From: Candidatus Omnitrophota bacterium
GTDB lineage: Bacteria > Omnitrophota > Gorgyraeia > Zapsychrales > JAKLDJ01
Direction: 5' to 3'
NCBI GenBank assembly: GCA_022703585.1
Contig: JAKLDJ010000001.1
Location: 118,891 to 182,890 of the forward strand
Length of the DNA stretch: 64,000 bases
Both the position numbers and the translations under genes were made by a program. The notes under the pieces are model-generated. The model saw only the letters and a program-made list of their open reading frames with translations, did no database searches and had not been told where the DNA came from. Shown one piece after another: positions 1,598-47,100 of this stretch; position 1 is the stretch's first letter, and each line of letters starts with the position of its first letter.

Positions 1598-1625
1598 TAT
1601 ATAACGTTTTACCCGGCGATGTCAA
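1598..1625 (-). promoter_or_regulatory. sigma70-like promoter (TTGACA-16-TATATA) upstream of 548..1531
   Basis: The minus strand reads TTGACAtcgccgggtaaaacgtTATATA, about 70 nt upstream of the ATG at 1531. Confidence 0.4.
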
Positions 1626-1670
1626 TCCCTATTATCGCCCGCCAAGAAACGGCAGGCAGAAACAGCCGGG

Positions 1671-1868
1671 TTATCTTTTGGAAATTCTAATAAAGTGCCC
1701 GACCGACCGGTCATAGGTCCGCTCGGCGCTATCCGAGAAATAACATGCCGGAAGTTCTCCCTGAGAACGGTGATACTCCAGACATTCACAGCAGATACCT
1801 TTCCTGGAACAACCGGCGTAGCTACAATTGCAATTTTTGAGATTTCTGGCTTTATTGGTACACTCCAT
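1671..1868 (-). CDS. small cysteine-rich protein (DUF6485-like)
   Basis: 65 aa with the pattern C-x6-C-x-C...C-x6-CC-x-C typical of small Cys-rich proteins of anaerobes. It is preferred over the overlapping plus-strand ORF 1695..1925 because of this conserved Cys spacing. Confidence 0.45.
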
Positions 1869-1879
1869 ACGCCTCTCCT

Positions 1880-27827: not shown

Positions 27828-29408
27828 ATGGAACAAGCAGCGAATCAGCCAACCCACCATGTAACAGCCCGTGCCGATCGTATTTCTTTCTTTCAAAAAT
27901 TCGTCTACGGGATGGGGTCGTTCGTTAACCAATTTGCCGGCGCTGCGATGGGGAGCTTAATTCTTGTTTTAAACCTTGGGCTCGGTGTCAATCCCGCCTT
28001 AGTCGGAACGATAGGAGCTATCCCTCGTTTTCTCGATGCCTTTTCCGATCCCTTAATCGGCTACAGCTCGGACAATACCCGAACCCGCTGGGGCCGCCGT
28101 AAGCCCTGGATATTGTTTGGGGCCCTTTCTTCGGGAATTTTATTAGCCATGATGTTCCAGCTCCATCCGGGAAAAAGCGAAATGTTCTATTTCTGGTGGG
28201 TCTTGGGAATCCAATGCCTCTTTGTTATTGCCTTCGCCTGCTATTCAATCCCCTGGCTTGCTCTTGGATATGAAATGACGCCGGATTATCATGAACGGAC
28301 ACGGTTGCAGGCAGTCGCCAGTTTTTTTGGCCAACCCGTCTGGATTATTGCAGCCTGGATTCCGATGGTCATGACTTCAAAAGAAATTCCTATCAAAATA
28401 TGGAATTGGACTTTAACCGTTATCAATAGTCCGTTTAAAGATATCGTCGAAGCATCACGGGGCCTTGCGATCTTTGTCGGGATCTTTATTACCGTCTTCG
28501 GGGTCCTTCCGGCTCTTTTCAATAAAGAACTTTACGGGAATTTACCCCGGCCGGAAAAAGCAAAAGGTTATAAAAATGTTATTAAAGACATCTTGCACAA
28601 TTGTGCCACTTCTTTCAAATGCGGCCCGTTTGTCAAGCTGGTCACGGTAACATTCCTGATCTTCAACGGATTCATGCTGGCCTCCGCCTTCACCGCTTAT
28701 GTTGTTTTCTTCTATGTCTTTGGCAATCAACCCACCATGGACCTGATGTACCAAAACGGCGGGGCCTTGCTGGGTGTCTTTGGGTCACTCAGTGCCATTT
28801 GTACTGCCTTCGTCGCCATTCCCTTAACAACATGGATTTCGACAAAACTCGGCAAGCGCAAGACCTTTTTAATCACCATGTCGCTGGCAATCTTTGGTTA
28901 CGTCTTAAAATGGGTCGGATATAACCAGCAATATCCTTATTTACTGATCGTCGCGGCGCCATTCTTGGCGTTCCACCTGGGGTCGCTGTTTACAATCGTC
29001 TGCTCCATGGTCGCCGATGTATGTGATCTTGATGAGCTTCAGACCGGCACCCGCCGGGAGGGGATGTTCAGCGGTATTTTCTGGTGGGTCCAAAAGCTGG
29101 GCATGGCCGGGGCATCGCTCCTCGCCGGAATCCTCCTCAATGCAACCGGTTTCAAACAGGCGCTAGGCCTCAACCAGACAGCGGACGCTTTGTTTTACAT
29201 GAGAGTTTGCGACGTCGGAATTCCGATTGTGACCTCTTTGATCGCTATTTACATTATCATGACCTTTGATATCACAGAAGCTAAAGCCTACGATATCCGC
29301 CAGCAGGTCGAACGGCGAAGAGAAGACAGGCGAAAAGAAGAACGGCGTGCAGAAGAAAGACGCGCAGAAAAAAGACGGGAAGAAGAAAGACGAGGAAGGC
29401 AGTTATAG
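27828..29408 (+). CDS. MFS transporter, glycoside-pentoside-hexuronide (GPH):cation symporter family
   Basis: 12 TM helices and the GPH signature (DAFSDPLIGYSSDNTRTRWGRRKPW). It has an atypical 35-aa Arg/Glu-rich C-terminal tail (RREDRRKEERRAEERRAEKRREEERRGRQL). Confidence 0.85.
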   Translation: MEQAANQPTHHVTARADRISFFQKFVYGMGSFVNQFAGAAMGSLILVLNLGLGVNPALVGTIGAIPRFLDAFSDPLIGYSSDNTRTRWGRRKPWILFGALSSGILLAMMFQLHPGKSEMFYFWWVLGIQCLFVIAFACYSIPWLALGYEMTPDYHERTRLQAVASFFGQPVWIIAAWIPMVMTSKEIPIKIWNWTLTVINSPFKDIVEASRGLAIFVGIFITVFGVLPALFNKELYGNLPRPEKAKGYKNVIKDILHNCATSFKCGPFVKLVTVTFLIFNGFMLASAFTAYVVFFYVFGNQPTMDLMYQNGGALLGVFGSLSAICTAFVAIPLTTWISTKLGKRKTFLITMSLAIFGYVLKWVGYNQQYPYLLIVAAPFLAFHLGSLFTIVCSMVADVCDLDELQTGTRREGMFSGIFWWVQKLGMAGASLLAGILLNATGFKQALGLNQTADALFYMRVCDVGIPIVTSLIAIYIIMTFDITEAKAYDIRQQVERRREDRRKEERRAEERRAEKRREEERRGRQL

Positions 29409-29447: not shown

Positions 29448-30389
29448 GTGACAAAACAACCTGACAATAAAAGTATGAACTCAAAACCGGTTATTATTTT
29501 TCCATACCGAGGGTATGAGAATAACGAACAGTGTGAATGGTATTTTTGGTGGACCGTTGACCGATGCAAAGAAATCGATCCCAGGCCGATCGTTGTGTTG
29601 CCCCGGGATACAGTCATAAAGCAGAATGCCGTTTCTTTCATAAAAGATGAGCGATACAAGACCCTCGAGGTTGTGCAAACCTGGTCGGTCGACACATCCC
29701 AGACATGGCTTGCCGGCTGGGGCCATGTGCTTGATAATTATCCTAAAGTAGAAAGAATTGTGCAAATCCCGGGTGACCTGGATTATGTCAAAGAGGATGT
29801 CAAGTTCTATGAAAACTTGAGCAGCTTTATTAAAACAACAGGTTCGGATATTGCCATAGGAGATTTTGGGACCGGGGATAAGTTCAGCGCCAAAAGCTTA
29901 GTCGATACCTACGGCTCGTACCCACTTCTCGCGAACTGGTTTCCGGAGATCTCGCAAAGCATAAGGTCCCTGCCTCTTCACAGATCGAGGTCCGAGTTTC
30001 TTAATATCAAGACATCGGTTTTGCGCGAGCTTATCATAAATAACAGAAATTTTGCTTATGAACAAACCCTGAACTTCTTGATCAAATCCTGGAATTACGA
30101 TGAAGCAAAATGGAAATATAATATATCCGTATCTCCCCTAGGAAGCCTGTCGGACAATAAGTCTTTTAGGGATTACAGAGCCTCTGTTGACCAGATAGAG
30201 AGAATCGAACGGATGCTTTCTTTATTATGGCGGGAAATCAGGGAGCCAAAAAAGAAAGACAGCGTAGACGATAAAGAGTTCGAACAACAGTATACCGTGT
30301 TCAGCAACGAATACGACAAACTCTACACTAAATCAAAAGGCATTATGGAAACCGCCCGAACGACTCTAAGGGCCTTCTTGGGCGTATAG
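29448..30389 (+). CDS. hypothetical protein (no recognisable domain)
   Basis: 313-aa ORF 39 nt downstream of the MFS gene. It is soluble and no motif was recognised. It is followed by a bidirectional terminator hairpin. Confidence 0.5.
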   Translation: MTKQPDNKSMNSKPVIIFPYRGYENNEQCEWYFWWTVDRCKEIDPRPIVVLPRDTVIKQNAVSFIKDERYKTLEVVQTWSVDTSQTWLAGWGHVLDNYPKVERIVQIPGDLDYVKEDVKFYENLSSFIKTTGSDIAIGDFGTGDKFSAKSLVDTYGSYPLLANWFPEISQSIRSLPLHRSRSEFLNIKTSVLRELIINNRNFAYEQTLNFLIKSWNYDEAKWKYNISVSPLGSLSDNKSFRDYRASVDQIERIERMLSLLWREIREPKKKDSVDDKEFEQQYTVFSNEYDKLYTKSKGIMETARTTLRAFLGV

Positions 30390-30468: not shown

Positions 30469-31314
30469 CTATCCCCCCGTTGCCCCGTATGTAAAGCCCC
30501 GCATAATATGTTTTTGCATCAGTAAATATATAAAGATAATAGGAAGCGCGGCAATAGTCAGGCCCGCCATCAAGACCGGATAGTCCACGCTGTGAGCCCC
30601 CTGAAATTTCATAAGCCCTATCTGAAGCGGCATCAGGTCTTTATCGTTTAAAAGCAGTTGCGCTAAAATATACTCGTTCCACACAATTAAAGAATTAAAA
30701 ATAACAACGACCGCAATGGCAGGCCTGGCCCACGGCAAGGCAACATGCCACCAGATACCCAATTTATTGCATCCCTCGATGCGGGCCACATCTTCCAAGT
30801 CAGACGGCAATTTATCAAAGAATGTCTTGAGCAAAAAGATACTCATGGAAAGCCCGACATTGATCATGCAAAGAATATAGCCGATGCGCGTATCGGCCAA
30901 TCCCAATTTATTGACCAAAACAACCAGGGGAACAAAACTCCCCGGCAAGGGGATCATCATCGCGGCGATAAACATATAGAAAAAGAAATTCTTGCCCGGA
31001 AAACTCAAACGAGAAAATGCAAAAGCAGCCAGAGAAGCGACAACGACTATTCCCCCCACAACCGTACCCGTATAAAAGATGCTGTTGAGCAAATATATTC
31101 CAAAACCTCCGTCAACCCAGGCCTTGGCATAGTTTCCAAAATGAAGCGCAGACGGTATTAAAGACTTGTCCGTAAAAATAGTGTCCAGGCTCATCAAAGA
31201 CGATCGAAACATCCAAAAAAGCGGAAACAAGCACGTCACGGCGGTCGCAATTAAGAAAGCATGGGCACCGACACCGCCTAAAACTTTTAATGCCCTGTAA
31301 TACAATAAGTTCAT
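30469..31314 (-). CDS. carbohydrate ABC transporter permease (MalG-like)
   Basis: 281 aa with six TM helices and the binding-protein-dependent EAA motif (EDVARIEGCNKLGIWWHVALPWARP). Confidence 0.85.
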   Translation of the reverse strand: MNLLYYRALKVLGGVGAHAFLIATAVTCLFPLFWMFRSSLMSLDTIFTDKSLIPSALHFGNYAKAWVDGGFGIYLLNSIFYTGTVVGGIVVVASLAAFAFSRLSFPGKNFFFYMFIAAMMIPLPGSFVPLVVLVNKLGLADTRIGYILCMINVGLSMSIFLLKTFFDKLPSDLEDVARIEGCNKLGIWWHVALPWARPAIAVVVIFNSLIVWNEYILAQLLLNDKDLMPLQIGLMKFQGAHSVDYPVLMAGLTIAALPIIFIYLLMQKHIMRGFTYGATGG

Positions 31315-31448: not shown

Positions 31449-32456
31449 TCAGGCTTGCTTTAACCTGTCCGAAATAAACTTAAACCCTAAAGAAACAGCA
31501 ATTAAAATGATACCAAAAGCGACACCCTGCGCGCAGGCATAACCAAAATAGTGATCCAGCATCGAATCCAGGATCTCTGTTACCGGAACAGAAGTGTAGT
31601 CCACAAAACCGCTTCTGCCAGTCATCGAAATAATAAGGATAAACGACTGCATGGAACCTAAGATCGTCAGTATAACAACGACGAGGGTGACCGGTATCAT
31701 CGCGGGAAGAGTAACATTCTTTAGTATCTTCCAGCTCCCGGCCCCATCAACTTTCGCCGCTTCATAAAGCTGCCGATCGATTGTCTGCAGTCCGGCCAAG
31801 AACATCAAAAATCCCCATCCAAAACCTTTCCAGGAGTGCACGATGGATATGCACGGCAAGGCCGTCCGGGGGTCGGACAACCAGTTATTGACCAAATGGG
31901 GAAAACCTGTTTTTACCAGTACGTAATTTAAAAGCCCGATAGGTTCACCGCTTTGCATTCCGGCATTTAGAATCCACGTCCACACTAAACCAACCACCAC
32001 TTCCGATAAAACAGGCGGTATAAAAAAAACGACAATATAAAAATTCTTCATTCTTAGCTCGCGGTCACACAAAAGAGCGAGTGTAAAAGCCAGGGCATTC
32101 TGAAAGGTTAATGCCACGAGGGTAATAAATCCTGCGTTCATCAGAGAGCCCCACCATTGCCTATCCTGGAAAAGGTCGATAAAGTTCTGAAAACCTACAA
32201 AATCTTCCTTGAACTTAATAACATCAATCCCATTCCATTCAAGAACGGAAAGTCGAAATATATCGATAAAAGGATATACGTAGAAAGTGCAGAAGATAAC
32301 AACAGCGGGCAAAATAAACAAAAAGCTCGTGAGATGCGCCCCCATGAAGTCCTTCGACTTTGGCTCAGAATGGTGAGCGAAAGTCGAACCATTTTTCTTA
32401 CCCGGGTTCACCCGCCGCAATTCCGTGGGACGAGTCGAAGGGCCTGTCTCTACCAT
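31449..32456 (-). CDS. carbohydrate ABC transporter permease (MalF-like)
   Basis: EAA motif (YEAAKVDGAGSWKILKNVTLP) and six TM helices. The ORF-track start at 32522 overlaps the upstream binding-protein gene by 65 nt; the start was moved to the in-frame ATG at 32456 (MVETGP...) immediately after the SBP stop. A later ATG at 32345 is also possible. Confidence 0.8.
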   Translation of the reverse strand: MVETGPSTRPTELRRVNPGKKNGSTFAHHSEPKSKDFMGAHLTSFLFILPAVVIFCTFYVYPFIDIFRLSVLEWNGIDVIKFKEDFVGFQNFIDLFQDRQWWGSLMNAGFITLVALTFQNALAFTLALLCDRELRMKNFYIVVFFIPPVLSEVVVGLVWTWILNAGMQSGEPIGLLNYVLVKTGFPHLVNNWLSDPRTALPCISIVHSWKGFGWGFLMFLAGLQTIDRQLYEAAKVDGAGSWKILKNVTLPAMIPVTLVVVILTILGSMQSFILIISMTGRSGFVDYTSVPVTEILDSMLDHYFGYACAQGVAFGIILIAVSLGFKFISDRLKQA

Positions 32457-32457
32457 G

Positions 32458-33834
32458 TTAATTCTTTCGCCTGCTTTCTCTTTCCAAAACTTTTTCTTTC
32501 GCGGCTTGAACTTCTTGCGCAACTTCTTGGGGTGTTTTTTCTCCGATAATAATCGACTGAATTCCTTTAGTAAATCTTTCGCTCACCTTAGGATGCTCAT
32601 TGACTCGCCATGCCGTCGGATGAGTCCCGTAGTCTGCGCCTTTGGCAAAGCCTGACAAAATAGGATCAACGGCTGAAAGTGCCTTTTTATTGGCGGGGAG
32701 ATTTTTTGTTTCTGCCGCAAAGACAGCTTGTTGTTCTCGGGCTGTCAGCCATTTTAAAAAATCAATTGATTTTTGCTTATTCATAGATCCGCCATTAACC
32801 ACAAACGACGAACCCGTGTACCAGATGGCCATAGGAAAATTTTTGCTCACGGCCGGGGGCAGCATAACGCCGTATTCGAGATTCGGATTCATATCCTTAT
32901 AAACATTAACACACCAAGAACCGTTAAAGGCAAAGGCGGCGCGCTCTAAGGCAAAATCCTGCTCGGCATATTTGTTGCCTTTGATAACGATGCCCTTAAC
33001 AAACGCGTCGTGATCGGCCAATATTTTAAAAAGATTAAACACTGTTATCCAGTCAGCATCGGTATACTTTACCTTGCCGCGGTAGGTCGCCATGACCTTT
33101 TCTTCGCCCATTACATTAAACGCATAATTCGAGGCAAAGCAATCGATCAGCCATGCCTCGCCCCAGCCGGACACAAAGCCGGCAAGGCCGACGCGCTTTA
33201 AGGCTTCGATGTCTTCGATAAGTTCCTGGAATGTCTCCGGGGGATTGGTAATGCCGGCCTGTTTGAGGAGTTTTTTGTTATAAAGCATCTGGATGGTGGT
33301 CACATCGATAGGGACCCCGTAAATACCGGGCCTGATCTTATAGATGTTGCTTTCTTCAAATTGATTAACCGCCAGGGCCTTGGGGAAAAAGCTCGATTCC
33401 CACTCGGAATTATTAAGCCGAAAATCATTTGTCAGATCCGCGACAAAACCGTTTTCGATAAACGAGGCAAAGACTTTCTTTTCGCCCAATACGCCGAAAA
33501 TATCCGGCAGGACCTTGGCCTGGGCAGCGGCAATAACCTTCTGCGAGTAGGCGTCCGACGGAGCATAGAGTTCAAAATTGACTTTGATGCCCGTTTCCCG
33601 CTCGTATTTTTGGGCGAGCTCAACCAGCGCGTCGTGCCGGTCAGTCATCCAGTGCCAGACGGTAATCGTATCGGTATTTTTGTTTTTTCCGAATGTGCAG
33701 CCCGTAATATTTAAAGCAGAAATAACGGCAAGAATGGATAGAACAAAAACGCAGGAGAAAGGTTTTCTCATCCGCCCTTTTCCTTTGTGCGGTGGGTTTC
33801 CCTTAGAGATTTTGCCCCGCCTCCGGCGGGGCAA
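32458..33834 (-). CDS. extracellular solute-binding protein of a sugar ABC transporter
   Basis: 458 aa with a lipoprotein-type signal (ALNITGCTFG), then a family-1 SBP fold. Confidence 0.8.
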   Translation of the reverse strand: MPRRRRGKISKGNPPHKGKGRMRKPFSCVFVLSILAVISALNITGCTFGKNKNTDTITVWHWMTDRHDALVELAQKYERETGIKVNFELYAPSDAYSQKVIAAAQAKVLPDIFGVLGEKKVFASFIENGFVADLTNDFRLNNSEWESSFFPKALAVNQFEESNIYKIRPGIYGVPIDVTTIQMLYNKKLLKQAGITNPPETFQELIEDIEALKRVGLAGFVSGWGEAWLIDCFASNYAFNVMGEEKVMATYRGKVKYTDADWITVFNLFKILADHDAFVKGIVIKGNKYAEQDFALERAAFAFNGSWCVNVYKDMNPNLEYGVMLPPAVSKNFPMAIWYTGSSFVVNGGSMNKQKSIDFLKWLTAREQQAVFAAETKNLPANKKALSAVDPILSGFAKGADYGTHPTAWRVNEHPKVSERFTKGIQSIIIGEKTPQEVAQEVQAAKEKVLERESRRKN

Positions 33835-33881: not shown

Positions 33882-36800
33882 TTACCGCTGGCCTCCATCC
33901 GGAACCATCATGATATTGATATTCGGTTTCCGGTTGTGCACAATAACGCCATCGGCTACATAAGTATGATAAGGATTAACCTCGAAATTGTAAATATTAA
34001 CTTTATTATTTACAACTTCGATAGTTTGGATGGCAACGTCTTCGCCTTGAGTGTTCGTCAGGGTATCACCGACTTTTAATTTCCCTATCTCTGTCCAGGC
34101 TCCTTTGCTTAAAACCCGGTGGATAGGTGTCACCTTCATATGACCGTTCACGATCAAGAAAGTGTCCTCTTGGTCATGCTTAAAGACCTCCGTGACCTTG
34201 TCCGGCTTCATCTGCTTTGTCTCTTCGTCGAAGGCCAAGACCACATCACCGACGCTGATATTCTCAATCGGCTTTTGCGTCCCGTCTGCCATCGTGATCG
34301 GCGTCCCGGCCAAGAAACAGCCAGGCGCGCTGGTAATGGTCAGGGTGGCGTCGTCGAAGTAGGCCTGCGCAGGAAGCGGGTAACTTACCGCGTCATAAAA
34401 GAGATTGGCTCTAATTGTCGCAGTGGCAGCTGTACTAGGAATTGTTATATTGCTAACCGATAACAGCGTCCAAGGAGTATTTCCTCCTATCGTGTTAGAA
34501 GAATGGGTGCCGATTTCAGCGCCACTGGAATTCTTAAATATGACCAAAAGCTGGGCGCTGGCTGTTGCCAGCGGGTCAATAATCGTTCTACCGTAAATTG
34601 TAGCGGTTAACTTCCTTCCCGGCGTAACGTTAACCGTTTGTTCGACTGCTCCGTTATGATCCTGAAGAGATACCGGGAATTCAAAGAGCGCGGCATAACT
34701 CCCGCTATGAGAAAGCGTCGTGACTTCAGCCGGTTGAAAAGGCATGTCCCAATCGCTTAACCCATTTTCAAAACCGGAATTAAGCAAAGTTGTTTGCGCC
34801 GGAGGAGAAATATAGTCATAGGAATAAACGAAATTATCGAAGTTGCCTATCCCTCCTACTGCTTGGCTATCTCCCTGAGAAGCGAAAACAAACCCGCTGA
34901 CTCTCACCTTGGTTGCGCCGGCAGGAATAGTCCCGGAAACATAAAGTTGCCGCCAACCATTATCCGCGGTTATTTGATCCGCATCAATGACATACGCGTC
35001 CCCTTGATTATCAATATACTCAAGCTGTATTCCAGCCGCCGCACTTGAAAAAACGCTTATGTCCGATTTAAGATAAGCGGTTAGATAAACATTTTGTGCC
35101 GCAGGAAATGGGCTTCCTTGCGCATTGTAATAGATATCCTGATAAATCGTGCTGTAATAATTTTGGGTAGTAGTTGAACCGATAGTCTTCTTAGCAGAAT
35201 AAGGAGAACTGTGCGGATTAACAGAATCTAATTCGCTGGGCGCTCCGTAAAGGTCAGTCCAACCACCAAGACCGCTACCGTCGTCAAAATTAGGGTTAAC
35301 GAGGCTTGTCCTAAAATTAGGTGGCGGTAATTGATCAAAAGAAGCAAAAACATCGTCGAAATATATATTCCCGCCATAAAGCGATGCGGCATGCGGGCAG
35401 GAAACAAAAGGACTCACCCTGGCCTTAGCCGATGAAGACGGGGCAACTGCCGTTACAAAAAGATACGTCCAGCCTGTTATCCCGCCGATTGTATTTGATT
35501 GCACCGGGCTACCGATAGGCGTACCATCTGCCTCAAAAAATTCCAGCTGCAAGCCAGCCGTTGCGCTGGATCGTGGATCTATAACAGTTTTGGCCCATTC
35601 AGTTGCCCACAATTGCTGTCCGGGAGTCACGGTAAATTCCTGGTAAATCCTCGACCAAAAATCCGCAGATCCGCCTGGAACTTGAATAATTGATTTGGCG
35701 GATTTGGTCCCAGTCCGATGCTCTTCAGTAACTGCCGCCATCGGATACCCGGTTGCATCTTGCGTCCATCCAGCCATGTCACTTTCAAAACTAGGATTGA
35801 GGATTAAATCGCTGGGCGGAGTGTTTGAAAAAGCCATGTCATCAACAAAAACATTGCCATTGATTGTCCCTTGATTCCTTTGCGCCCAAGCATAAGCACT
35901 TATTCTAACCGTGGCTGTGCCCGTTGGTGCTATGTTGTAAACATAAAGTAAAGACCAGTCGGTTTGACCTCCTATATCTGCTTGCTGAGCTGAACCAATC
36001 GGCTGCCCGGAACCATCTAAGAACTGAATCTTCACTCCGCCCCTAGCAATTTTCGAAGGATCAATATTTGTTTTTACCCATCCGGTAACATAAGCAGTAT
36101 TTCCTACGGTAAAGGGGATATCTTGCTGGTAAAGCTCAGTATAATAGTCGTTACTACCAGCCGTATCTCCTATTGTATGGTTTGCAGAATAAATTCCGGA
36201 ATGATGAGTCGTACTGGCTATCCACGGCCGGTAGAGAAAAGTCCAATCATTAACACCATTTTCAAAATCGGCATTAATCAAATCCGACGGAGGAAGTAAC
36301 GGTGGAATAGCCGTGTATGAAACTGCAAAATCATCAATATAGAAGTTACCACCTACTGCTGCCGTATCATTTTGCCCAGCCCAAAGAAATCCGCCAACTC
36401 TTATTTTTGTTGTAGTTGCCGGGGCAATCCCTGAAACATACAGCTGACGCCAATCCGTCATTCCTCCGATCTCCGACTTGATATCATACTGGCTGCCTAA
36501 ATAAGTGTTTCCGTTGTAAAACTGAATAAGCAATCCACCCTTCGCGCTTGCTAATGGATTTATGGCTGTCTTACCCCAAGCTGTGGCATAAATTGCCTGA
36601 CCTGCGCTTAAGGGCACTTCTTGATAAACTTGACCCCAATAATCCGAAGTAACACCATTGACATTATCCCGGGCACTATAAACTCCGGTATGAGCATAAG
36701 TAGTCGAAGCGCTGAATTGAGAATTACCGGCCCAACCGCTTAACTGTGATTCAAAACCAGGATTCGTTATTAAGCCGCCACCGGGGGCTTGAATTCTATC

Positions 36801-37340
36801 AATAAACATATTGTCAACGGCTACTTTGCCTCCAATAGCAGATGAATCGTCTTTGGCGGCATAAGCAAACGCACCTGCTCTCACTTTTGCTGTTCCGGTC
36901 GGAGCAGTGCCGGTTACATAAATTTCAGTCCAATCATTAACCCCGCCGACGGGCGTAGTTATCGTCCCAACGACAACATCTGAAGAATTGAGAAATTCTA
37001 CCATGATACCACCGCGAGCGGATGAACCCTCAGCCATTTGGGTTTTAATCTGCGCGGTCATGTAAATCGGATCGCCGGCCGCGACAGGAGTAATTACTTG
37101 ATAAATCTCGGCAAAATAATCCCTGTCAGCTACGGTGGTTATCGTATTTTCCGCGGCATAATTCGGGCTATGCACTATGGCATAGAAAGGATAGCCGACC
37201 GTTGACCAATTATTCACCCCGTTCTCAAAGCCCGGATCCGTAAAAAGATTCGTCGCCCAAGCTTGTGTGCCTACAGACAAAAACAGCCCTACAATTAGGG
37301 CTCCGATGGTTAATGCTCGTTTCATAACTCTGCCTCCCAT
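33882..37340 (-). CDS. secreted protein with six CBM4/9-like carbohydrate-binding repeats and a C-terminal bacterial intein-like (Hint/BIL) domain
   Basis: 1152 aa with a signal peptide. Six ~150-aa repeats each start with a NPGFE/DFENG...W motif. The C-terminal ~140 aa carry Hint blocks: CFLAGTPITMADG (N-terminal nucleophile Cys) ... VGDVVLAFDEE ... NIYNFEVNPYHTYVADGVIVHN (terminal His-Asn), followed by only 16 residues. Confidence 0.8.
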   Translation of the reverse strand: MGGRVMKRALTIGALIVGLFLSVGTQAWATNLFTDPGFENGVNNWSTVGYPFYAIVHSPNYAAENTITTVADRDYFAEIYQVITPVAAGDPIYMTAQIKTQMAEGSSARGGIMVEFLNSSDVVVGTITTPVGGVNDWTEIYVTGTAPTGTAKVRAGAFAYAAKDDSSAIGGKVAVDNMFIDRIQAPGGGLITNPGFESQLSGWAGNSQFSASTTYAHTGVYSARDNVNGVTSDYWGQVYQEVPLSAGQAIYATAWGKTAINPLASAKGGLLIQFYNGNTYLGSQYDIKSEIGGMTDWRQLYVSGIAPATTTKIRVGGFLWAGQNDTAAVGGNFYIDDFAVSYTAIPPLLPPSDLINADFENGVNDWTFLYRPWIASTTHHSGIYSANHTIGDTAGSNDYYTELYQQDIPFTVGNTAYVTGWVKTNIDPSKIARGGVKIQFLDGSGQPIGSAQQADIGGQTDWSLLYVYNIAPTGTATVRISAYAWAQRNQGTINGNVFVDDMAFSNTPPSDLILNPSFESDMAGWTQDATGYPMAAVTEEHRTGTKSAKSIIQVPGGSADFWSRIYQEFTVTPGQQLWATEWAKTVIDPRSSATAGLQLEFFEADGTPIGSPVQSNTIGGITGWTYLFVTAVAPSSSAKARVSPFVSCPHAASLYGGNIYFDDVFASFDQLPPPNFRTSLVNPNFDDGSGLGGWTDLYGAPSELDSVNPHSSPYSAKKTIGSTTTQNYYSTIYQDIYYNAQGSPFPAAQNVYLTAYLKSDISVFSSAAAGIQLEYIDNQGDAYVIDADQITADNGWRQLYVSGTIPAGATKVRVSGFVFASQGDSQAVGGIGNFDNFVYSYDYISPPAQTTLLNSGFENGLSDWDMPFQPAEVTTLSHSGSYAALFEFPVSLQDHNGAVEQTVNVTPGRKLTATIYGRTIIDPLATASAQLLVIFKNSSGAEIGTHSSNTIGGNTPWTLLSVSNITIPSTAATATIRANLFYDAVSYPLPAQAYFDDATLTITSAPGCFLAGTPITMADGTQKPIENISVGDVVLAFDEETKQMKPDKVTEVFKHDQEDTFLIVNGHMKVTPIHRVLSKGAWTEIGKLKVGDTLTNTQGEDVAIQTIEVVNNKVNIYNFEVNPYHTYVADGVIVHNRKPNINIMMVPDGGQR

Positions 37341-37573: not shown

Positions 37574-40000
37574 TTAGCCCAAAACGGCTTTAATTTTATG
37601 AGTTTTTCCGTCCGCGAAAGGAGTAACGAGGTTGCCTTCTATTTTTTGACCATCAACAAAAAGTTCCTTAACCCCGCGCTCAACACCCTTGGGATTAAGA
37701 ATCTCGATTTCGTAAATATCGTTTCTAAACGGCCTTTTGATAAAACATTTTTTCCACTTTTTAGGGATACACGGATCAATCCGCAAGCCTTCAAAATCGC
37801 GCCGGGCACCCAGGACCCATTCGGTCGCGGCCATAAAGGTCCAACCGGCGGTTCCGGTAATCCAGGTAAAGGCCCCTTCGCCGTAACGGTAAGGATTTTC
37901 GGGCCCGACTAAATATTCGGCATAAACATAAGGCTCGGTCTTGTAAAGGTCCATATCCTTTTGCGCGTTGGGCATGATTTTTCGCATGGCCTCATAGGCC
38001 TTGTCCCCGCGGCCGGCCAGGCAGTAGGCCACCGCCATGAATGTCGCCGCGTGGCAAAAGGCGGCGGCGTTCTCCTTCGTGCCTTCAGAGAACATGCTGA
38101 TACGCCCCAAACGTTTGACCCAGGAAGAATAGGCAGGGTAAAACAAGGTAATGCCGTGCGGGCCGTTTAGATATTTGTCAACGGAATCAAGGACATGGTT
38201 GAGTCTCTCGTCTCGTGCCACTCCTCCTAAAACCGCCCAAGCCTGGGAATTGATATAAATCCGGCGCCCTTCTTTGTCGTTCTTGCTTCCGTAAACCACG
38301 TCGTCATCGTCAAAGCCGCGGACATACCATGACCCGTCCCAGCAAAGCGAATTAACCCGCTCGTCCATGGTCTTGGCCATTTGCAGGTAATTGTTTTTCT
38401 TGTTTTCATCGCCGGTTAAAGCGCACAAGTCCGCCAGCATCTTTAAAGACCGCACCAAAGCCTGCGCCAGCCAGACGCTCTGGCCTTTATGTTTTATCCC
38501 GGCTGAATCAATGGCATCGTTCCAGTCGGCATGGCCGATTTTTGGCAGCCCTTTGTCGCCGACATCATTAAAACAAAAGTTTAAATTTTTCTCCAGGTGT
38601 TCTAACAGCGTCCCTTCGCCATCCACTTGAGCGCTATTTTTCCAGTTAGGATCAATTTCCCAGCCACCCAGCCATTGGTCCTTGAGGTAGGGCACGTATT
38701 CCGAAAGAATGCTTTTATCACCGGTTTCCTTTATATAGGCGCTAACGGTTGAAGTCAGCCAGATCTGGTGGTCTTTGTTGGGCCGGTGCTTGTTGGGCCC
38801 GACTGTGTCCGACCAACCCGGGGCCGAGGTGCCGTCCCTGCGGATGAGCGAAGCAAGCTTTAAAATCTTTTTGCGGGTCAGCTGCGGATTAATCGAAACT
38901 ACCCCTTCCGAGTCCTGACAGGAATCGCGGTAACCGCGCCCGCCCGAGCCCTCATGATAAAAACTTGGGGATCGTGACCAGAAATTACAAATGTACATCT
39001 GGTATTTGACCCAGACATTCATCATGGTGTTAAAATCCTTGTCCGGGGTTTCGACAACAATGTTTTTAACAATGCGTTCCCGCCAGATTTTCTTGGTATT
39101 TTCGAGTTCCTTCTTGGCCGCGGCGACCTTTCGGTACTTGGCAAGAATTTTAGTGATGGCCGGGATGCCGGTGGTTTGGCCCAAGATAACGGTAAATTCT
39201 TTTGTCTGGTGAGGCGCAAGAGTTATATTATTCTTAAAAGCACCGATGGCATCTTCGCCGGAGCAAAGCGGAAAGTTTTTGAATTTCCCTTCAAGGACAG
39301 CCTCGGGATTTTCTTCAGTGTTATAACGGCCTAAGAATGCGTCTTTTTGAGTGCAGCAGCCCGACACAGATAACGATGTCGCAAAGAATCCTAAGGTGTC
39401 AAAGGGCTGAATATTCATCCCCTGCCACTGGGCGGTCTTTTTGGCAAACACAGCCTTGTGGGATTTATCGAACCAGATGCGATTATAAAGATTCATGATG
39501 TTGCGGTAGCGCAACTCCTCATGATAATCGCCCATTAAAAATTCTACATAAGGATAAATTTCAAGCTTGCGGGTTTTGGTCGTTTTATTGGTGAGCTTGA
39601 CCAGCCAGACTTCGCAATCATCGTGCTCGGGGACAAAATAGGTAATTTCGGATTGGATTCCGCTATTAACCGACTCAATAACCGTGTAGCCAAGCCCGTG
39701 GCGGCACGCATAGGATTGCGGTTTCACACGCAAAGGCTGAAAGGTTGCCGACCAAGCTTTATTGGTTTTTGCGTCGCGGATAAGAATGTATTTGCCCGGG
39801 CGGTCAAAATGCCAATTCTCCGGCGACCAGCGGGTAATACGGTTGGTGCGGCAGTCTTTGTAAAAACTGTATCCCCCCGCGGTCTGAGAAACAATCGAGC
39901 AATAGGTTTCGTTGGTTAGATAATTAATCCAAGGGCGAGGAGTCACGGGATTGGTAATGACGTATTCCAATCCGTCGGGAGAAAAGTGGCCGTAATTCAT
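37574..40000 (-). CDS. glycoside hydrolase family 94-like glycan phosphorylase (cellobiose/cellodextrin/chitobiose phosphorylase family)
   Basis: 808 aa. The N-terminus (MNYGHFSPDGLEYVITNPVTPRPWINYLTNE) and the central (alpha/alpha)6 barrel are collinear with GH94 phosphorylases. Confidence 0.8.
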   Translation of the reverse strand: MNYGHFSPDGLEYVITNPVTPRPWINYLTNETYCSIVSQTAGGYSFYKDCRTNRITRWSPENWHFDRPGKYILIRDAKTNKAWSATFQPLRVKPQSYACRHGLGYTVIESVNSGIQSEITYFVPEHDDCEVWLVKLTNKTTKTRKLEIYPYVEFLMGDYHEELRYRNIMNLYNRIWFDKSHKAVFAKKTAQWQGMNIQPFDTLGFFATSLSVSGCCTQKDAFLGRYNTEENPEAVLEGKFKNFPLCSGEDAIGAFKNNITLAPHQTKEFTVILGQTTGIPAITKILAKYRKVAAAKKELENTKKIWRERIVKNIVVETPDKDFNTMMNVWVKYQMYICNFWSRSPSFYHEGSGGRGYRDSCQDSEGVVSINPQLTRKKILKLASLIRRDGTSAPGWSDTVGPNKHRPNKDHQIWLTSTVSAYIKETGDKSILSEYVPYLKDQWLGGWEIDPNWKNSAQVDGEGTLLEHLEKNLNFCFNDVGDKGLPKIGHADWNDAIDSAGIKHKGQSVWLAQALVRSLKMLADLCALTGDENKKNNYLQMAKTMDERVNSLCWDGSWYVRGFDDDDVVYGSKNDKEGRRIYINSQAWAVLGGVARDERLNHVLDSVDKYLNGPHGITLFYPAYSSWVKRLGRISMFSEGTKENAAAFCHAATFMAVAYCLAGRGDKAYEAMRKIMPNAQKDMDLYKTEPYVYAEYLVGPENPYRYGEGAFTWITGTAGWTFMAATEWVLGARRDFEGLRIDPCIPKKWKKCFIKRPFRNDIYEIEILNPKGVERGVKELFVDGQKIEGNLVTPFADGKTHKIKAVLG

Positions 40001-40221: not shown

Positions 40222-40551
40222 CTACTGGCAAAACTTAAAAATCCTCTGGGTGTCCATAAAATCAACTTTGTCAAACTTCATGCCCACATCCCATGTTTGC
40301 GGGTTGGCGGGCCGGCTCCAAGCCACACGTCCGCTTAAATTCAGCGGTTCATGACCGTCGGGAAGCTCCACCAGCAAATCAATCTTGTCGTTTAAGAGAA
40401 ATCTCTCCTTAGTGGAGACTTTCGCGCCTGTCGCGGAGACATCTCTTAAGAAAACATTGGTACCGAAATCTGCCCGTTCGTCTTTAAACTTGACCGGGAA
40501 CCTAGCCATGAAACGATCGAAGACACGGCGATCATCAATGCCGATAACCAT
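40222..40551 (-). CDS. PilZ domain protein (c-di-GMP receptor)
   Basis: 109 aa with the RxxxR motif (RRVFDRF) and DxSxxG motif (DVSATGAKV). Confidence 0.75.
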   Translation of the reverse strand: MVIGIDDRRVFDRFMARFPVKFKDERADFGTNVFLRDVSATGAKVSTKERFLLNDKIDLLVELPDGHEPLNLSGRVAWSRPANPQTWDVGMKFDKVDFMDTQRIFKFCQ

Positions 40552-40661: not shown

Positions 40662-41036
40662 TTAAAAGGCTTTTTCAATTGCGGAGCACGAACCGCTGGC
40701 GACATCGGCAAACGTCATCCCCACCCGGTAAAAATCCGAACTGGGCAGCTGGCGGACCCATCGCACTTTTCCGACGGCTAAGATCGGCTCGCTGTCGGGT
40801 GTTAACGCCAATTCTATCGGCATCTTGGTATTGACCGGAATAAATTTGGTCGATAAAAATCCCACCCCGCCGCGACTGATGTCTAAAGTCAGACTGCTAT
40901 CGAAAGCGTTACCTTTCTTGCACACAACCGGGACCCGGCAGTCGAACCGGGTCGATTTTCTTTTGTCAGAATCTTGCACTTTGTTCCTCCAATTGAAGTA
41001 TAGCACCATTTTTTCCGAAGAAAGCGTTTTTTTCAA
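40662..41036 (-). CDS. PilZ domain protein (c-di-GMP receptor)
   Basis: 124 aa with RxxxR (KRKSTRF) and DxSxxG (DISRGGVGF). Confidence 0.75.
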   Translation of the reverse strand: MKKTLSSEKMVLYFNWRNKVQDSDKRKSTRFDCRVPVVCKKGNAFDSSLTLDISRGGVGFLSTKFIPVNTKMPIELALTPDSEPILAVGKVRWVRQLPSSDFYRVGMTFADVASGSCSAIEKAF

Positions 41037-41146: not shown

Positions 41147-44100
41147 TTACCCGCATTCCGCCTCTTGCGGAGAAAGTTCCGAATCCGGATTTTCCTTATC
41201 CGGTAATCCCTCCTCTTGAAACAAAACCCCGGCCTTGACCAACGCCCGGCGAAGAGGCTTAAACTTCTCGGTTGAAATAACTTCCTCAAAACGCGCGTTC
41301 AAAACTTGGTCACCCCTGATCATATCCATAACAACCCGCGCTCCGTCGGGAACGATCAAAACACAATCCAATACCACTTTAAGCGCGTCTTCTTGCCGGC
41401 TGCCCTGGCCGCATAACATCGCTCTGGCATGCCGCGGTAAAGCATTCCATTGGCGAATCAATTGATTCAATAGCTGCGACCCTGCGTCAGTATCGCGGAA
41501 ATTGTCGATGGCCTCACCCAGCAAAAGATGATTAAGAAATACCCTCGCGATTGATAAAGTTTTCTCAATAGGCATAAAGGAAATTAATATGACAAGCTCC
41601 TTTAATGCCCTGGGCTTATTGTGCGCAGGCTCTCCTTTTGAATAATAAATCCATAAGTATTGCGCAAATAATATCTGGTATTCGCGGGTCGCCGGCGAAG
41701 AGCTCCTGGCATCAAGAAGCAATGCTTTTCCGGTCCGCTGCTCGATGGCCGTAATTCGTTCCTGCGAATCGGTATGATGGCCAAAACTGCGCCGGGATAT
41801 AGACCTTCCTTCACGCAAACGTTCTTTCAGCCGCTCGACAATAGAATCTTCATCGCTGGATTCATCCTGGCGGGGAAGCAACCGGATTTTTTCTTTTCTT
41901 TCGATATCCATAGCGTGCTTATACAGGGCGTCGTCGGGAAATGGCCCGTTTTGAAGGCCCTGCGGATAATTCGCTTCTCGCCCCAGGGCTTCTTTTCTCA
42001 CGGCCAGCTGATAAATAACCGAATCCCTGTCGGGATAAAGATCAAGGCGGCCGGCCAGAAGCGTAAACCTAAGCTGGCGCCCAAGCGTGTAAATTCTCGC
42101 CGCTAAATTCACTCCCGCCGAACCTTCGTTTTTCATGGCGGCGTTGGTATTGCGCAATCCTTTTTCAAGGCGTTGACGGAGTTCTTCTTTGGTGCGGACT
42201 AACGAACGGCGGCGGCAACCGGGGACAACAAAATCCGACAATCGCTCGATATCCCGCCGCACGTTGTAGAGCCTGCCGTAACCGTCCAGTAATTTGCTTA
42301 AGATAATCCATTCTAAGGGGCCGAGCTTATAGTATTCAACGATTTCATCCAAACAGCATAGCTTCTGACCCACCGGTAAATTCCACCATTCCTTGGTCCT
42401 TAAACGGCAATCCAATCGCGCCAAGGCCTTTTGAATCGGCGCCCGCAGGGCCGTGCCTTCATCCAGCGCTTCATCTATATCGCCGGCGTCTCTTATTCTA
42501 AAGAATGCCATCCTTCGGGAAAATTGCAGGCGCAAGAGTTCGTCTTTGGGATTCTCCTCTACCATTTCGGCCAAGGCGACATCACTGTCGTCAAAGGGAT
42601 CTGCATATAATTTTGTTTCGGGGCCAAATGCCTGGTCCATACCATTCAGGGTTGCCTTGATGGCTACCTCAGTGATGGATATGGCCTGCTTACTGATACC
42701 CCAGAGATTACCGACACGTTCCTGACTCCAGGGTTGCCCGTCTTTTGTGCCTATGCCATGGCGCAGACCAACGATCAATCTCCTCCGAGGATCTTCTAAA
42801 GAGGCGATATGCCGGCGGGCAAGTTTGATTTTTCCGTTGACCTCTTGTTCCCTGTCCAATCTTTCTTCCGCATCCTCAAAGGTACGCTGAGGGATACATT
42901 CTCCTTCTTCCCGGTCATCATTCGAACCGCGCTTAGCGTCTAAAGAAACGACGGCTGTTTCCTTTTCCGCCTTACTTTTTCCGTTGTAATGTATTTTATT
43001 TCGATATTGAGAGATCTCACCTTTCATCCACCATTCCCAATAAGTCAAAAGTCCGTTTTCGAAACTTAAGTCAAATTTGCCTAATGCCCCGAGAAGGGCC
43101 AGGCGCCCGATAGCCTTCATCTCAACCCTGGAGATGCCTGCCCGCAGCAAGTCGGACCCATGCCGATTAAACATCTCCCCCACAAATCCTATATTATTTT
43201 TAACAATATAATCGCATATACGCCCCCGAAGGTTATTGTCTCCCAGCTGAAAAGCCCAAATGAGAATCCGCTCCTCGCTGCGGGAAAGATAGCAGCCCGG
43301 CTTAACCGGCCGGGCCATGATGCGCCTGGCCCTGGCGATGGCCTCGTCTTTGGGGCTTCCCTTGACCATCCCCACCATCACAATCGGCAAAAACATCAGC
43401 GGCCCGGCCTCGACGAAGGCCATGAAAATGGCCGAGGCGGGCCCGAGGGCAGAGGGAACAAAACATCCTAAATTCTGATCCTTCAGCTGGGCTTCCTGAT
43501 CTTTAGGCCGCTGCACCATCATGAAGGAGTACTCTCTCGAAATAAATATTCCCGGCCAGGTGGCGGCTTTTTTCATCTCCCCAAGCTCAAAACCGTTCAT
43601 TGCCAAAACGTTCAATGGAAAATCAATTTCGTCCCCTAAGAGAAAACCTTGCTTCCCAAATGATTGAGCAATCTTATTAGCCATCTTTCCAAAAACGCAA
43701 TCAGGCGCGATAGCAGAAAAAAAGTTCACAGAGTAACCCATGGAAATAATAAATCCTCTAACAATATTTTCGGGTATTTGCGAATCTTCGAACCCGAAGG
43801 GAATTAGTTGAAGATTATCTTTATTTCCGGGGCTCTTGGCTTCAAGGGTCGAAAACGCGGCGTCCATAATTTCTTTGCAGTAATACGACAAGGCTTGGGG
43901 TGAAAAAACCGGGTCAAAGGCGATCACACGCACCCCACGGCTGGCCAGTTCTATCTCGACAAAAAGATTGTCACCAGAACCGATTGACATGACCATATCG
44001 CCCTCCCTGATGGGAAGCTGGTCAACGATAGCCTTCGCGGTCGCAAAAAACGGTCCGTTGAGATCTTTGAGCGCCGCTAAAACCTCTCTCTTTCTTTCCG

Positions 44101-47100
44101 CAATACCTCGCTGCTGGGGCGAATAGGAAAAAATGTCACCTTCGAAGAAAGACCCCCGTCCCCGCATCATCCCCGCCACCGGCAACAACATCAGCGGCCC
44201 GAGGGCGAAGGGCAGCAGGAAGCCGTAGAGATCGTCTTCATCATCGTCATTCGATGAGGCCTCGGAATCAGTTGCCTCTGCCTCTTGCACATCTTCTCCG
44301 TGTTTTTTAACATCATCCCAATAAATTCTCTGCTCCATATTTCCCTTGCGTAACTTAAAATTATGAAACGTCTGCGCATTAATCAATCGGGCCTCTTGGT
44401 AACTGACAGCAATCGCCGAATCAGAACCCTTTTCTTGGATAACCGCGCTGGGGAAAAGCGCGCGCACATAAGAAATAAAATCTTGGTTATCCTGATCCTT
44501 ATTGACGAATACGGCTATTCTTGCCTTCTCAATCTTAAAATCTTTTAATTTCTCAACAACGCCGTCAAAATCCTGCCTTTCCTGGCCCGCCCTGATCCTT
44601 TGGATAACCAGATCTTGCGCATAATCTTCTTCCTCCCACTCGCCGCGCACGGCAACGACGATATCGCTTCCTAAATTCTCCGAAAGGATAATACTGTTAT
44701 CGCGAAAACTTGTACCGATTCTTAATAGAATATTGCTTCCTACATAATAAAGAGTTTTGCCCTTCCATTCTGACGTCCAGCCATCATCGATAGAATACCC
44801 GGCACCTGGAGCGACCACATTAACTCGGGAATATCTTCCTTTCTTCTCCTCAATTTTATGTTTTTTAACCGACTTTGAGCCGCCTTGATTCACAGCCCCA
44901 AAGAAAGCAACAACAAAATCAAGAAAATCTGCCAATCGTAAGGCCCGTATGGCATCGGATTTTCTTTTCTTTAATCCTGACCGTTCTGAAGAATATATCT
45001 GAACGAGTCTTTCTGTTTCTTCAACTGCATGTTTTTGAAACTCCAAGGCACGTACTTCTTCGCGAAGCCTTTCCCTTGTTGATCCGAGCTCTTCCTTTCT
45101 TCTCTCGCGTTCTTCATCGTCGGGATCATTACTGTTTACCCCGTTCCGTAAGCGACGAAACTCCTCATCCGCTTCTTCTATCTGTTGCATTTTTATCGCG
45201 ATCTTTCTTTCATATTCTTTTAATTGCTTTCTAAGAAAAGAGGGGCTGGAAGCAATCCTCAATCTATGCCTGATCGTTTCCATGCGTTTTGCGGTCGCTT
45301 CATGCTCCTTTTCTTTTCCCTTGGGAACATTGTAGCGGTACTTTTCATATTGCTTATCTAATGCAGTATAAAGGTCGCTTAATCTCTTAAGAAGGGTAAC
45401 ATTTCTCGAATCATATTCATCCGCCCACCGGATAACATCTTCGCTCTCAAAATCGGCGATGATACAGAAGTCCGGATCGCCCACGAAACCACTCATTCTC
45501 GTAATCCGCGCATGCATTTTCTTAAAGATGACCGGGATCGCGATCGTAACCGCCCGCTGGAGTTGCGCGCGAGTGAGCCGTCTAAATTCTTTGCGTACCT
45601 CCTGAACTTTTTCCGCGAAACCGTCTCGATCTTCATCACCCCTTAAATGCTGTTCATCCGTTAATAGAACAATGGCCTTCAGCATGTCAGTTTCTTGCTC
45701 AGAAAATTTCATGTTAGGCAATATTTTATTCCCAGAACGCCATCTTATCTGGCCGGAAAGACTGGGGATTATCGAGCAGATCGAAGCGAAGAAAAGCAGA
45801 TACCCGTCTTCTTCCTTAACCCGCCCATGTTTAATATCTTCCGTGAATCTAAAGACCGTTGTCATGGCTAAATCCAACTTTGAGAAAACATTAACGCGCC
45901 GATGAAAAAATGAATCAGACTCTTCTCTGTGCAGGGGGCTGAGTTCGTGAATCACAAAAGACAATAAACCACACCCTTTAAGGATATCGACCGCTTCCAC
46001 CAACCGTATCTTTGAATCCTTTTTCGTCCCACCCTTAACAAGCCGCTTAAAGAATTTGAGAAATTCATCGCTTCGGGCCACCCGGGCTTTTGTTCTGGTG
46101 GATAGACGATGGACGTAGGTCATGGCCTCGATATAATCCTCATCTTCCCTGAATCTTCTTTCAAGCATATTCACCACTTCCGAGGCTTCGCAATCCATGA
46201 CCCTGGCGTGTCTATCGCAGGGAAAATTGAACCGGTAACTGTATTCATTTCTCAATATCTGTAGCGTCCGATTTTCTCTTAATCTTTTTTTGATCTCTTC
46301 TAAACCAAGACTATTGCGCTCATTCACAAAGTCAATAAGCGGGGTATAAACATAATTGTAATAGCCCTCTAATAACCCGGCCGCGCCGGTTTGATAATGC
46401 AAGGTTTGCAGGGCCACTTCGATTTCCAAAATTAACCGGATCATTTCCGGCGTGCCGGCGCTATCCAATGATTCAATCTCGTCCGCAGCCGCCAGAATAG
46501 CACGTTTGGCCTCGTACTCGATTCTTTGAACATACATTAATTCTTTAACGATGGCAGTCACCGTCTTGGTATTTAAGAAAACGCGTCTTTTATAGGCATA
46601 GGAAGGAATCGGCTCTTCAAAGGCAAGCGCAAGAGAAACATGGATATCTTTTTTTGTTGCCGTCGGGGATAATTGATAATCAATCTCTTGAATAACGGTC
46701 CGTCCTTGAGCAACCTGGTTGACACCATTACGGTCCCGGTCAGCCGCTTCGCCGCCCCGCCAGCCATAATGCATAATGGCGGTCGTCACCGCGCGTGTCG
46801 TATAGCGGGCATCGGAATGGTCGTTTTCACGAGTCCCGCGGTATCCGGTATCAAGAACGGAAAAGCGCGGGACAATAAACCCGTTAGAAAGAATGGATAA
46901 ATGGGGGGCGATTATTTCATCCTCGCCGTGAAGGGCTAAATTCATGTCATCCAGTATCGCTTCTAGTTTTTCCTGCGATATTTCCAGATCAAATTCTTCG
47001 AGGTATTCTTTTAATTCACCAACCAAAAGAGGCTCCGTCAATTCTTCCATGTGCAGCCCCTCAAGCTTCTCCGACAAAGGAACAAGCCGGTGCCCGGTGA

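Follow-up and report, generated by a model that had tools for sequence, protein, structure and literature searches.

A C-terminal Hint domain of the A-type bacterial intein-like kind, followed by a 16-residue stub, on a predicted exported carbohydrate-binding protein of Candidatus Omnitrophota

Bacterial intein-like (BIL) domains were reportedly first described in 2003, and the A type is said to go back to Amitai et al. in 2003 and Dassa et al. in 2004. Type A BIL domains form a thioester at their N-terminal junction and cleave at the C-terminal junction through cyclisation of an Asn (PMC4031507; PMC7664689; PMC7765530); they yield mostly cleavage products (PMC7664689), can join their two flanks by attack of the freed alpha-amine on the thioester (PMC4031507), and live in hypervariable secreted proteins (PMC7765530). 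The HINT domains of polymorphic toxins are described as always sandwiched, with pre-toxin domains before them and a C-terminal toxin after them, which they release (Zhang, Iyer, Aravind 2011; PMC3113570). In the BIL2 domain of the Tetrahymena BUBL proteins (6Y75/6TMM), the thioester is resolved by a lysine amine (PMC8616854). The Hedgehog/Hog proteins join a signal peptide, a secreted N-terminal cargo and a C-terminal Hint, and there the N-terminal reaction alone suffices to free the cargo. Here we describe a Hint domain in a stretch of 64,000 nucleotides from a Candidatus Omnitrophota bacterium (contig JAKLDJ010000001.1), which is called the window below and in whose numbering all positions are given. 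The gene that carries it occupies 33882..37340 on the minus strand and encodes 1152 amino acids (aa) counted from the first ATG, with six tandem repeats resembling carbohydrate-binding modules (CBMs) ahead of the Hint. We read the last 145 residues of this protein as a portable C-terminal module, made of a catalytically intact A-type BIL Hint and a disordered 16-aa stub, that would remove itself from the exported lectin; from the sequence, we put the probability of this reading at about 0.65. The same layout of cargo, Hint and stub recurs in many secreted proteins of ultra-small bacteria, and this speaks for a module of maturation or attachment and not for a device that releases toxins.

The Hint domain and its place among the described systems

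The Hint (33933..34319, minus strand) is 129 aa long, opens at C1008 (CFLAGTPITMADG...) and closes with ...VADGVIVHN1136. The Pfam model PT-HINT (PF07591) matches the whole protein with 61.1 bits (E 1.7e-16, cut-off 27.7) and its C-terminal 172 aa with 65 bits, while the remaining models of the Hint clan match more weakly, among them Hint_2 (PF13403) with 18.9–24.8 bits, under its cut-off of 28.4; weak NCBIfam matches to the N- and C-terminal ends of inteins are also found in the Hint. Judged by these sequence matches, the Hint assignment is far beyond chance. The top sequence match in the PDB is 2LWY, a BIL domain of Clostridium thermocellum (E 1e-14), with an alignment that runs end to end and places Cys1 against residue 1 (an Ala in the deposited mutant), TPIH against TFDH and VIVHN against VLVHN. 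On the minus strand, the codon of the catalytic Cys1 (C1008) lies at 34317..34319 and is preceded by that of a Gly, the predicted N-terminal scissile bond being G1007|C1008; block B, T1071-P-I-H1074, which carries the TxxH motif aligned to TFDH of 2LWY, lies at 34119..34130; and the codons of His1135-Asn1136 in block G lie at 33933..33938, with N1136|R1137 as the predicted C-terminal scissile bond. In an alignment of 11 family members, which span two Hint subtypes 31–45% identical to each other, C1008, T1071, H1074, H1125 of block F, H1135 and N1136 are invariant, and these catalytic residues are kept down to 40% overall identity. C1008 is also invariant in a second Hint alignment. The residue at +1 is R or K in 11/11 family members (Arg1137 here). 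After it the protein soon ends, since the whole tail, RKPNINIMMVPDGGQR (33885..33932, minus strand), consists of 16 residues with Arg at +1 and Lys at +2, followed by the stop codon.

A preliminary description of this locus, made from the letters alone, had reported a complete bacterial intein-like Hint that starts with Cys, ends with VADGVIVHN and is followed by a non-nucleophile. Because the hidden Markov model alignment supports the Hint fold, and because Cys1, the block-B His and the terminal His-Asn do fall on the catalytic columns, this observation stands. Two details of it have to be amended: the tail is short and has Arg at +1 as described, but its 16 residues include this Arg rather than follow it; and of the models then named together as PF07591/Hint_2, PF07591 does match, but it is PT-HINT, whereas Hint_2 is the separate model PF13403.

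An AlphaFold model of the Hint alone, built on a 27-sequence alignment, has a mean predicted local distance difference test (pLDDT) score of 88, about 97 in the core, and a predicted template modelling (pTM) score of 0.81, and the tail is modelled as disordered (pLDDT ~44). The nearest solved folds are those of the two solved BILs, 6Y75 (template modelling (TM) score 0.80, root-mean-square deviation (rmsd) 2.0 A) and 2LWY (TM 0.77/0.85, rmsd 1.9 A); mini-inteins (TM 0.65–0.74) and Hedgehog (0.64–0.66) rank lower. With the A-type BIL 2LWY the Hint shares the fold, the length (129 vs ~135 aa), Cys1, TxxH, the block-F His and the terminal His-Asn, and both have no nucleophile at +1, no inserted endonuclease, and a secreted, fast-evolving bacterial protein as host. 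Every defining feature of an A-type BIL that can be read from sequence is found here, and self-cleavage is predicted. It differs from 2LWY in standing at the extreme C-terminus of its host, where only a disordered stub of 16 aa lies past the Hint and there is thus no real C-extein to release or to ligate; in belonging to a conserved metabolic operon while being itself highly conserved (dN/dS 0.07); and in having, as a clade-wide hallmark, a Lys at +1 or +2, which is not mentioned in the BIL papers examined.

The other described systems share less with it. Pre-toxin HINT provides the best Pfam model, and secreted or surface multidomain hosts, module exchange and a displaced partial Hint (in the relative P0004) are common to both, but here the 16 residues after the Hint hold no toxin domain and neither an immunity gene nor orphan cassettes are adjacent. 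The Tetrahymena BIL2 is the best structural neighbour, at 29% identity, and likewise has no nucleophile at +1; moreover, its use of a lysine amine matches the conserved Lys of the clade described here. However, BIL2 comes from a eukaryote, has ubiquitin-like domains on its flanks and conjugates an N-extein that is itself ubiquitin-like, whereas the present Hint is carried by a bacterial lectin. With Hedgehog/Hog the Hint has in common the logic of a signal peptide, a secreted N-terminal cargo and a C-terminal Hint, as well as the site G|CF. The fold match to Hedgehog is weaker, no sterol- or adduct-recognition region lies C-terminal of the Hint, and the His-Asn, which Hog domains do not use, is kept. 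As for canonical inteins, neither C, S or T at +1 nor a conserved host site is found.

Selection, exchange and wider distribution of the module

The relative P0012, on contig L005, has a Hint 91% identical to that of the window protein and a repeat scaffold only 36% identical, and the identity leaps from ~30% to 80–97% exactly where the scaffold meets the Hint. The products of the surrounding genes on L005 are also similar to those of the window (94% identity for the glycoside phosphorylase GH94, 92–96% for PilZ, 87% for a 313-aa gene product, 77–85% for the permeases and 75% for the solute-binding protein). By the Nei-Gojobori method, the ratio of nonsynonymous to synonymous divergence (dN/dS) between the two loci is 0.070 (dS 0.77) for the Hint and 0.043 (dS 0.79) for GH94. 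Since Hint and GH94 have equal dS and the dN/dS of the Hint is low, the Hint has been co-inherited with its neighbours under strong purifying selection. A swap of the Hint as the cause of its contrast with the scaffold was rejected on the same ground; in this pair it is the scaffold, not the Hint, that was replaced or has diverged, and a diverged lectin scaffold fits the hypervariable hosts of BILs (PMC7765530). Despite the similarity of the two Hints, the tail on L005, RKIIPPYTQWDGNGHGN, shares only RK with that of the window. A conserved sorting signal in the tail was also considered and rejected, as close relatives share RK alone and the tail is modelled as disordered.

Elsewhere in the family the pattern is the reverse: P0003 and P0006 have scaffolds 62% identical and Hints 39% identical, and sequence comparison indicates that Hints of subtype 1 and subtype 2 have indeed been exchanged in the CBM-Hint family. 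The protein P0004 carries a complete subtype-1 Hint, then the C-terminal ~45 aa of a subtype-2 Hint, nearly identical to the matching part of P0007, and then a 46-aa tail, and looks like the recombination scar of a Hint cassette replacement. In P0170 (185 aa), the repeats are all deleted, and the signal peptide with the first ~15 residues of repeat 1 (DNLFSNADFSNGVNG) is fused straight onto the Hint. The Hint-less relatives P0010, P0015 and P0016, for their part, stop shortly after the last repeat, and a Hint-free product is thus viable.

An exhaustive search with the Hint against 1.84 billion representative proteins gave 19,510 matches at E <= 1e-3, and the layout was counted in the best 148 relatives among them. 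His-Asn is kept in 134 of these 148. A single Hint ending in His-Asn is found in 75 of them, and in 63 of the 75 (84%) the tail after HN is at most 30 aa long, with a median of 12. Cys stands at 280/285 aligned Hint starts, and the residue at −1 is mostly Gly, Ser or Thr. Of 274 distinct C-junctions, 61% have Lys at +1 and 79% have Lys at +1 or +2 (background 4.7%), while 13 have C, S or T at +1. The cargoes are mutually unrelated, and include He_PIG and Big_9 Ig-like domains, S8 and C25 peptidases, FG-GAP, beta-helix, cadherin-like, PKD and BNR domains, and proteins with pilin-type N_methyl leaders; the junction lies in a variable Gly/Pro-rich linker that follows them. The named carriers of terminal Hints belong to Omnitrophota and Patescibacteria, and the small Cys-rich terminal-Hint proteins of ~220 aa are found in Acidobacteriota too. 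The preliminary description had called the context of the Hint unusual. This was not borne out: the stub-tailed terminal Hint is the dominant layout among the closest relatives, on many unrelated secreted cargoes, and the same operon with a CBM-Hint gene is present on four other contigs. A scan of species genomes with the single Hint sequence returned only distant Hints from assorted phyla and missed the Omnitrophota relatives, so that it is silent on distribution.

Many relatives (among P0022–P0169, e.g. P0031, P0049, P0088 and P0110) have 2 to 8 or more Hints in tandem, in the form ...VHN-K-G(1-4)-C..., with each Cys1 placed 2–5 residues past the Asn of the preceding Hint, which would make them arrays of self-excising domains.

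Self-removal, transfer and other readings

In the reading that we favour, the precursor would be exported by the Sec pathway and the Hint would fold after export. Cys1008 would then attack the Gly1007-Cys1008 bond in an N-S acyl shift to give a thioester, and cyclisation of Asn1136 would cut the tail away. The thioester would be resolved by water, or by an amine freed or offered beside the C-junction, and the mature six-CBM lectin (about aa 30–1007) would thereby be freed from the Hint. This candidate lectin would end ...TITSAPG, similar to the natural ends of the Hint-less relatives. Together with the GH94 phosphorylase and the ATP-binding cassette (ABC) importer encoded beside it, it may capture beta-linked glycans, possibly from prey cell walls.

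Several points weigh against self-removal as the full account. We infer the activity of the Hint, and with it the cleavage, the sequence in which the steps would occur and how the thioester would be resolved, wholly from conservation. The disposal of the Hint alone leaves the cost of a 129-aa domain unexplained and fails to explain why His-Asn and the next Lys are kept beside a disordered stub; the kept His-Asn-Lys hints at a role of the C-junction beyond disposal. The Hint-less P0015 fills the same operon slot, so that at least one lineage can dispense with the module. A joint model of the last repeat with the Hint (10-sequence alignment) was poor, with pLDDT 59 overall and below 35 in the C-terminal half of the Hint, and was used for the repeat fold only. 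In the wider group, a subfamily of secreted, Cys-rich terminal-Hint proteins of ~220 aa (P0189, P0200 and others) keeps Cys1 but lacks the terminal Asn (VHRK for VHNRK) and the block-B His (TPxQ for TxxH). To judge from these losses, such Hints are possibly inactive or act at the N-junction only, and not all members of the wider group can act alike.

As disposal leaves the retention of His-Asn-Lys unexplained and BIL2 uses a Lys, transfer of the thioester with anchoring of the cargo is a live alternative to its hydrolysis, which we consider possible though rather improbable. The Hint would then serve as a single-turnover ligase like Hedgehog or the BUBL BIL2, and would pass the C-terminus of the lectin to an amine. 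This could be that of the conserved Lys beside His-Asn, in which case an isopeptide bond would hold the tail, or that of a Lys, or another amine, on the envelope, a pilus, the neighbouring giant protein or a prey surface, by which the cargo would be anchored covalently. Such transfer is consistent with the excess of Lys at +1/+2 over background and with the retention of His-Asn in nearly all of the best 148 relatives in spite of their stub tails, as well as with the N-junction G|CF, which is as in Hedgehog. The best structural neighbour, BIL2, forms an isopeptide with a Lys epsilon-amine and attaches its N-extein to other proteins (PMC8616854), and the ligation open to type A BILs (PMC4031507) also proceeds through a freed amine, but published BIL assays chiefly give cleavage products (PMC7664689). 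The cargoes are of sorts that usually bear C-terminal anchoring modules; indeed, the paralogue P0011 has dockerin-like repeats where the Hint would be, and in the relative P0205 the Hint is followed by a sorting domain of the type IX secretion system (T9SS). On the other hand, neither an acceptor nor a conserved partner gene specific to the Hint-bearing operons was found, nothing like a sterol-recognition region lies beyond the Hint, and the Lys might just favour Asn cyclisation or reflect a structural preference. The broader claim, that the terminal Hints of the clade (Cys1...His-Asn-Lys with a stub) are single-turnover ligases which fix secreted cargo, whether the lectin of the window or the proteases, adhesins and pilin-like proteins of other carriers, to an amine on the envelope, a pilus, the neighbouring giant surface protein or prey, seems to us unlikely.

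The readings of the Hint as a toxin relic and as a true intein are both poorly supported. In the former, a polymorphic toxin would have decayed by loss of its RHS repeats and/or its toxin, and the Hint and stub would be a functionless remnant. The best Pfam model is indeed PT-HINT, and the NCBI name of the protein is 'polymorphic toxin-type HINT domain-containing'; some tails (…WDGNGHGN, …GDGNGTR) look like the start of a YD repeat, and the second, partial Hint of P0004 is a scar as left by cassette replacement. Moreover, on the Omnitrophota contig of P0203 (L004), the same type of Hint continues through an RKQN... linker into YD/RHS repeats, with a piece of a YD-shell gene ahead of it. But the Hint of the window is constrained like the adjacent enzyme at a similar dS, its catalytic residues are invariant in the 11 relatives even at 40% overall identity, and short tails prevail in the single-Hint representatives. 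No toxin, immunity gene or orphan cassette lies downstream, as the preliminary description had noted of a toxin domain: the gene of the ABC solute-binding protein (SBP; 32458..33834, minus strand) starts 47 bp past the stop codon of the Hint gene, a gap too short for a toxin or immunity gene, and a PADLOC scan of the window for defence and toxin families gave zero matches. The low dN/dS of the Hint and the conserved short tails contradict the idea, also raised there, that a toxin downstream is truncated or missing, and we give the relic reading hardly any weight. An evolutionary link to RHS toxins is plausible, but it concerns the origin of the Hint, whereas its present state is maintained by selection. 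The alternative of a true (mini-)intein, a selfish element close to the C-terminus which would splice the 16-aa tail back onto the lectin, is very unlikely in our view. Blocks A, B, F and G are all there, the NCBIfam intein models match weakly, mini-inteins are good structural matches, and the incongruent histories of Hint and scaffold suggest a mobile module. However, the +1 residue is not C, S or T (Arg here, and one of the three in few C-junctions of the clade), no homing endonuclease is present, and the insertion lies in a Gly-rich linker past a variable cargo and not at a conserved host site. Furthermore, the tail, which goes along with the Hint, is not conserved, and this leaves no host extein to restore.

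On L004, at 1469..3390, the Hint has YD-shell/RHS repeat pieces on both sides, divided between two gene calls that overlap. This would fit an RHS protein with a frameshift or else a Hint set inside a region of RHS repeats.

The lectin cargo, the operon and the meaning of the module

Within the Hint gene a second ATG lies at 37325, with a GGAGG Shine-Dalgarno sequence 7 nt upstream, which makes the 1147-aa form the likelier product; this form is identical to an NCBI-annotated Candidatus Omnitrophota protein. The N-terminus reads by eye as a Sec-type signal peptide (MGGRVMKRALTIGALIVGLFLSVGTQAWA; 37254..37340, minus strand) with a putative cleavage after AWA, and equivalent hydrophobic N-termini are present in all family members. 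The cargo (34341..37247, minus strand; aa ~32–1000) consists of six CBM-like beta-jelly-roll repeats of ~160 aa, as the preliminary description had recognised, starting near aa 32, 190, 352, 512, 672 and 852 and pairwise 21–38% identical. The NCBIfam model NTTRR-F1 matches six stretches of this region (76.7 bits), and Pfam CBM_4_9 (PF02018) matches three (49 bits against a cut-off of 25.9). A modelled repeat (pLDDT 67–91 in the repeat region) resembles CBM4-2, CBM16, CBM61 and CBM70 (TMt 0.42–0.60) and also the lectin domains of phage tailspikes. By sequence and model the repeats have the CBM4/9-like fold and the PF02018 match that define this kind of module, and sugar binding is predicted. 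The last repeat is joined to the Hint by a short TSAPG linker.

At the very C-terminus of the CBM-repeat family (in the window, codon 33885..33887), Arg occurs in 8/22 members and Lys in 5/22, with or without a Hint, the Arg-ended tails being GGQR, NGTR, SGPR, IGDR, PRGR, SQGR, PSTR and EGDR; the excess of Arg has a binomial p of 7e-6 against a 5% expectation, a value in which relatedness is not controlled. The terminal Arg was considered as a part of the Hint module and rejected, as it is found in 2/63 of terminal-Hint proteins generally vs the 8/22 of the CBM-repeat family.

The Hint gene stands within a glycan-uptake operon, in agreement with the glycan-utilisation locus proposed earlier. 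The co-directional order is a giant gene, two pilZ genes, GH94, the CBM-Hint gene, the SBP gene and two permease genes. The giant open reading frame (ORF; 41147..63943, minus strand), directly upstream, is complete with 7598 aa; the two PilZ-domain genes (40662..41036 and 40222..40551, minus strand) lie between it and the GH94 glycoside phosphorylase gene (37574..40000, minus strand; PF17167 E 1.9e-109, PF06165 E 1.7e-73), the upstream partner of the Hint gene; and two ABC permease genes (31449..32522 and 30469..31314, minus strand) follow the SBP gene. The minus-strand operon is then interrupted by a plus-strand pair, a 313-aa gene with no Pfam or PADLOC match (29448..30389) and an MFS_2 sugar transporter gene (27828..29408), whose product has an unusual, highly charged C-terminal tail (...RRREDRRKEERRAEERRAEKRREEERRGRQL), beyond which come genes for a GH2_C/TPR protein and a TPR protein. 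The same plus-strand pair is present on L005 and partly on L009. Neither a further Hint copy nor a tRNA gene was found in the window.

The gene order is repeated around four relatives, which cover both Hint subtypes, namely P0002 (L001/L002), P0008 (L003), P0012 (L005) and P0013 (L006); thus the glycan-locus context is conserved in the lineage rather than peculiar to one gene. In the operons of P0002 (L001) and P0013 (L006), GH94 is 902–904 aa long and 24–28% identical to the 808-aa enzyme of the window, while the transporter genes are 58–71% identical. With a different, longer GH94 in otherwise syntenic operons, the phosphorylase has been swapped inside a conserved operon frame.

In a preprint, West-Roberts et al. 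(bioRxiv 10.1101/2023.11.21.568195) described giant genes followed by pilZ, solute-binding proteins, transporters and glycosyl hydrolases, and proposed that the locus binds and degrades prey cell walls. The 7598-aa ORF fits this Omnitrophota giant-gene class, and the giant gene that adjoins the operon of P0008 (L003) encodes 13,491 aa. In the C-terminal 5000 aa of the ORF, Pfam recognises only a TPR region; by eye, hydrophobic segments such as ...LGCFLPGLIFLPL...GMVRR and, near 43361..43462, ...PLMFLPIVMVGMVKG recur along the protein and seem to punctuate it.

The Hint itself is already flagged by automated annotation. In the literature searched, we did not find a description of the extreme-terminal layout of cargo, Hint and stub as a widespread selected module, of its His-Asn-Lys hallmark or of its place in giant-gene operons, nor an established role of BILs beyond toxin release. 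A search for Omnitrophota together with Hint domains returned no paper, and the Hint is unmentioned in two preprints on Omnitrophota giant genes, that of West-Roberts et al. included. The locus therefore offers a clean test case, with an intact and strongly selected Hint, essentially no C-extein, a defined cargo and a conserved operon that adjoins giant genes proposed for the attack on prey cell walls. If the thioester is only hydrolysed, the module would be a well-supported yet ordinary self-removing pro-domain. If it is transferred, the module would offer a new way of displaying proteins covalently at the surface and a natural, compact means of ligating proteins at the C-terminus, and, should the terminal Hints indeed be ligases, they would give ultra-small bacteria a way of anchoring that needs neither sortase nor ATP, parallel to the cholesteroylation of Hedgehog and the dispensing of ubiquitin by BUBL. 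The fact that dozens of unrelated secreted cargoes carry the same module, with a Lys after His-Asn, suggests that Hint chemistry serves the maturation or anchoring of many secreted proteins in these host-dependent, ultra-small bacteria.

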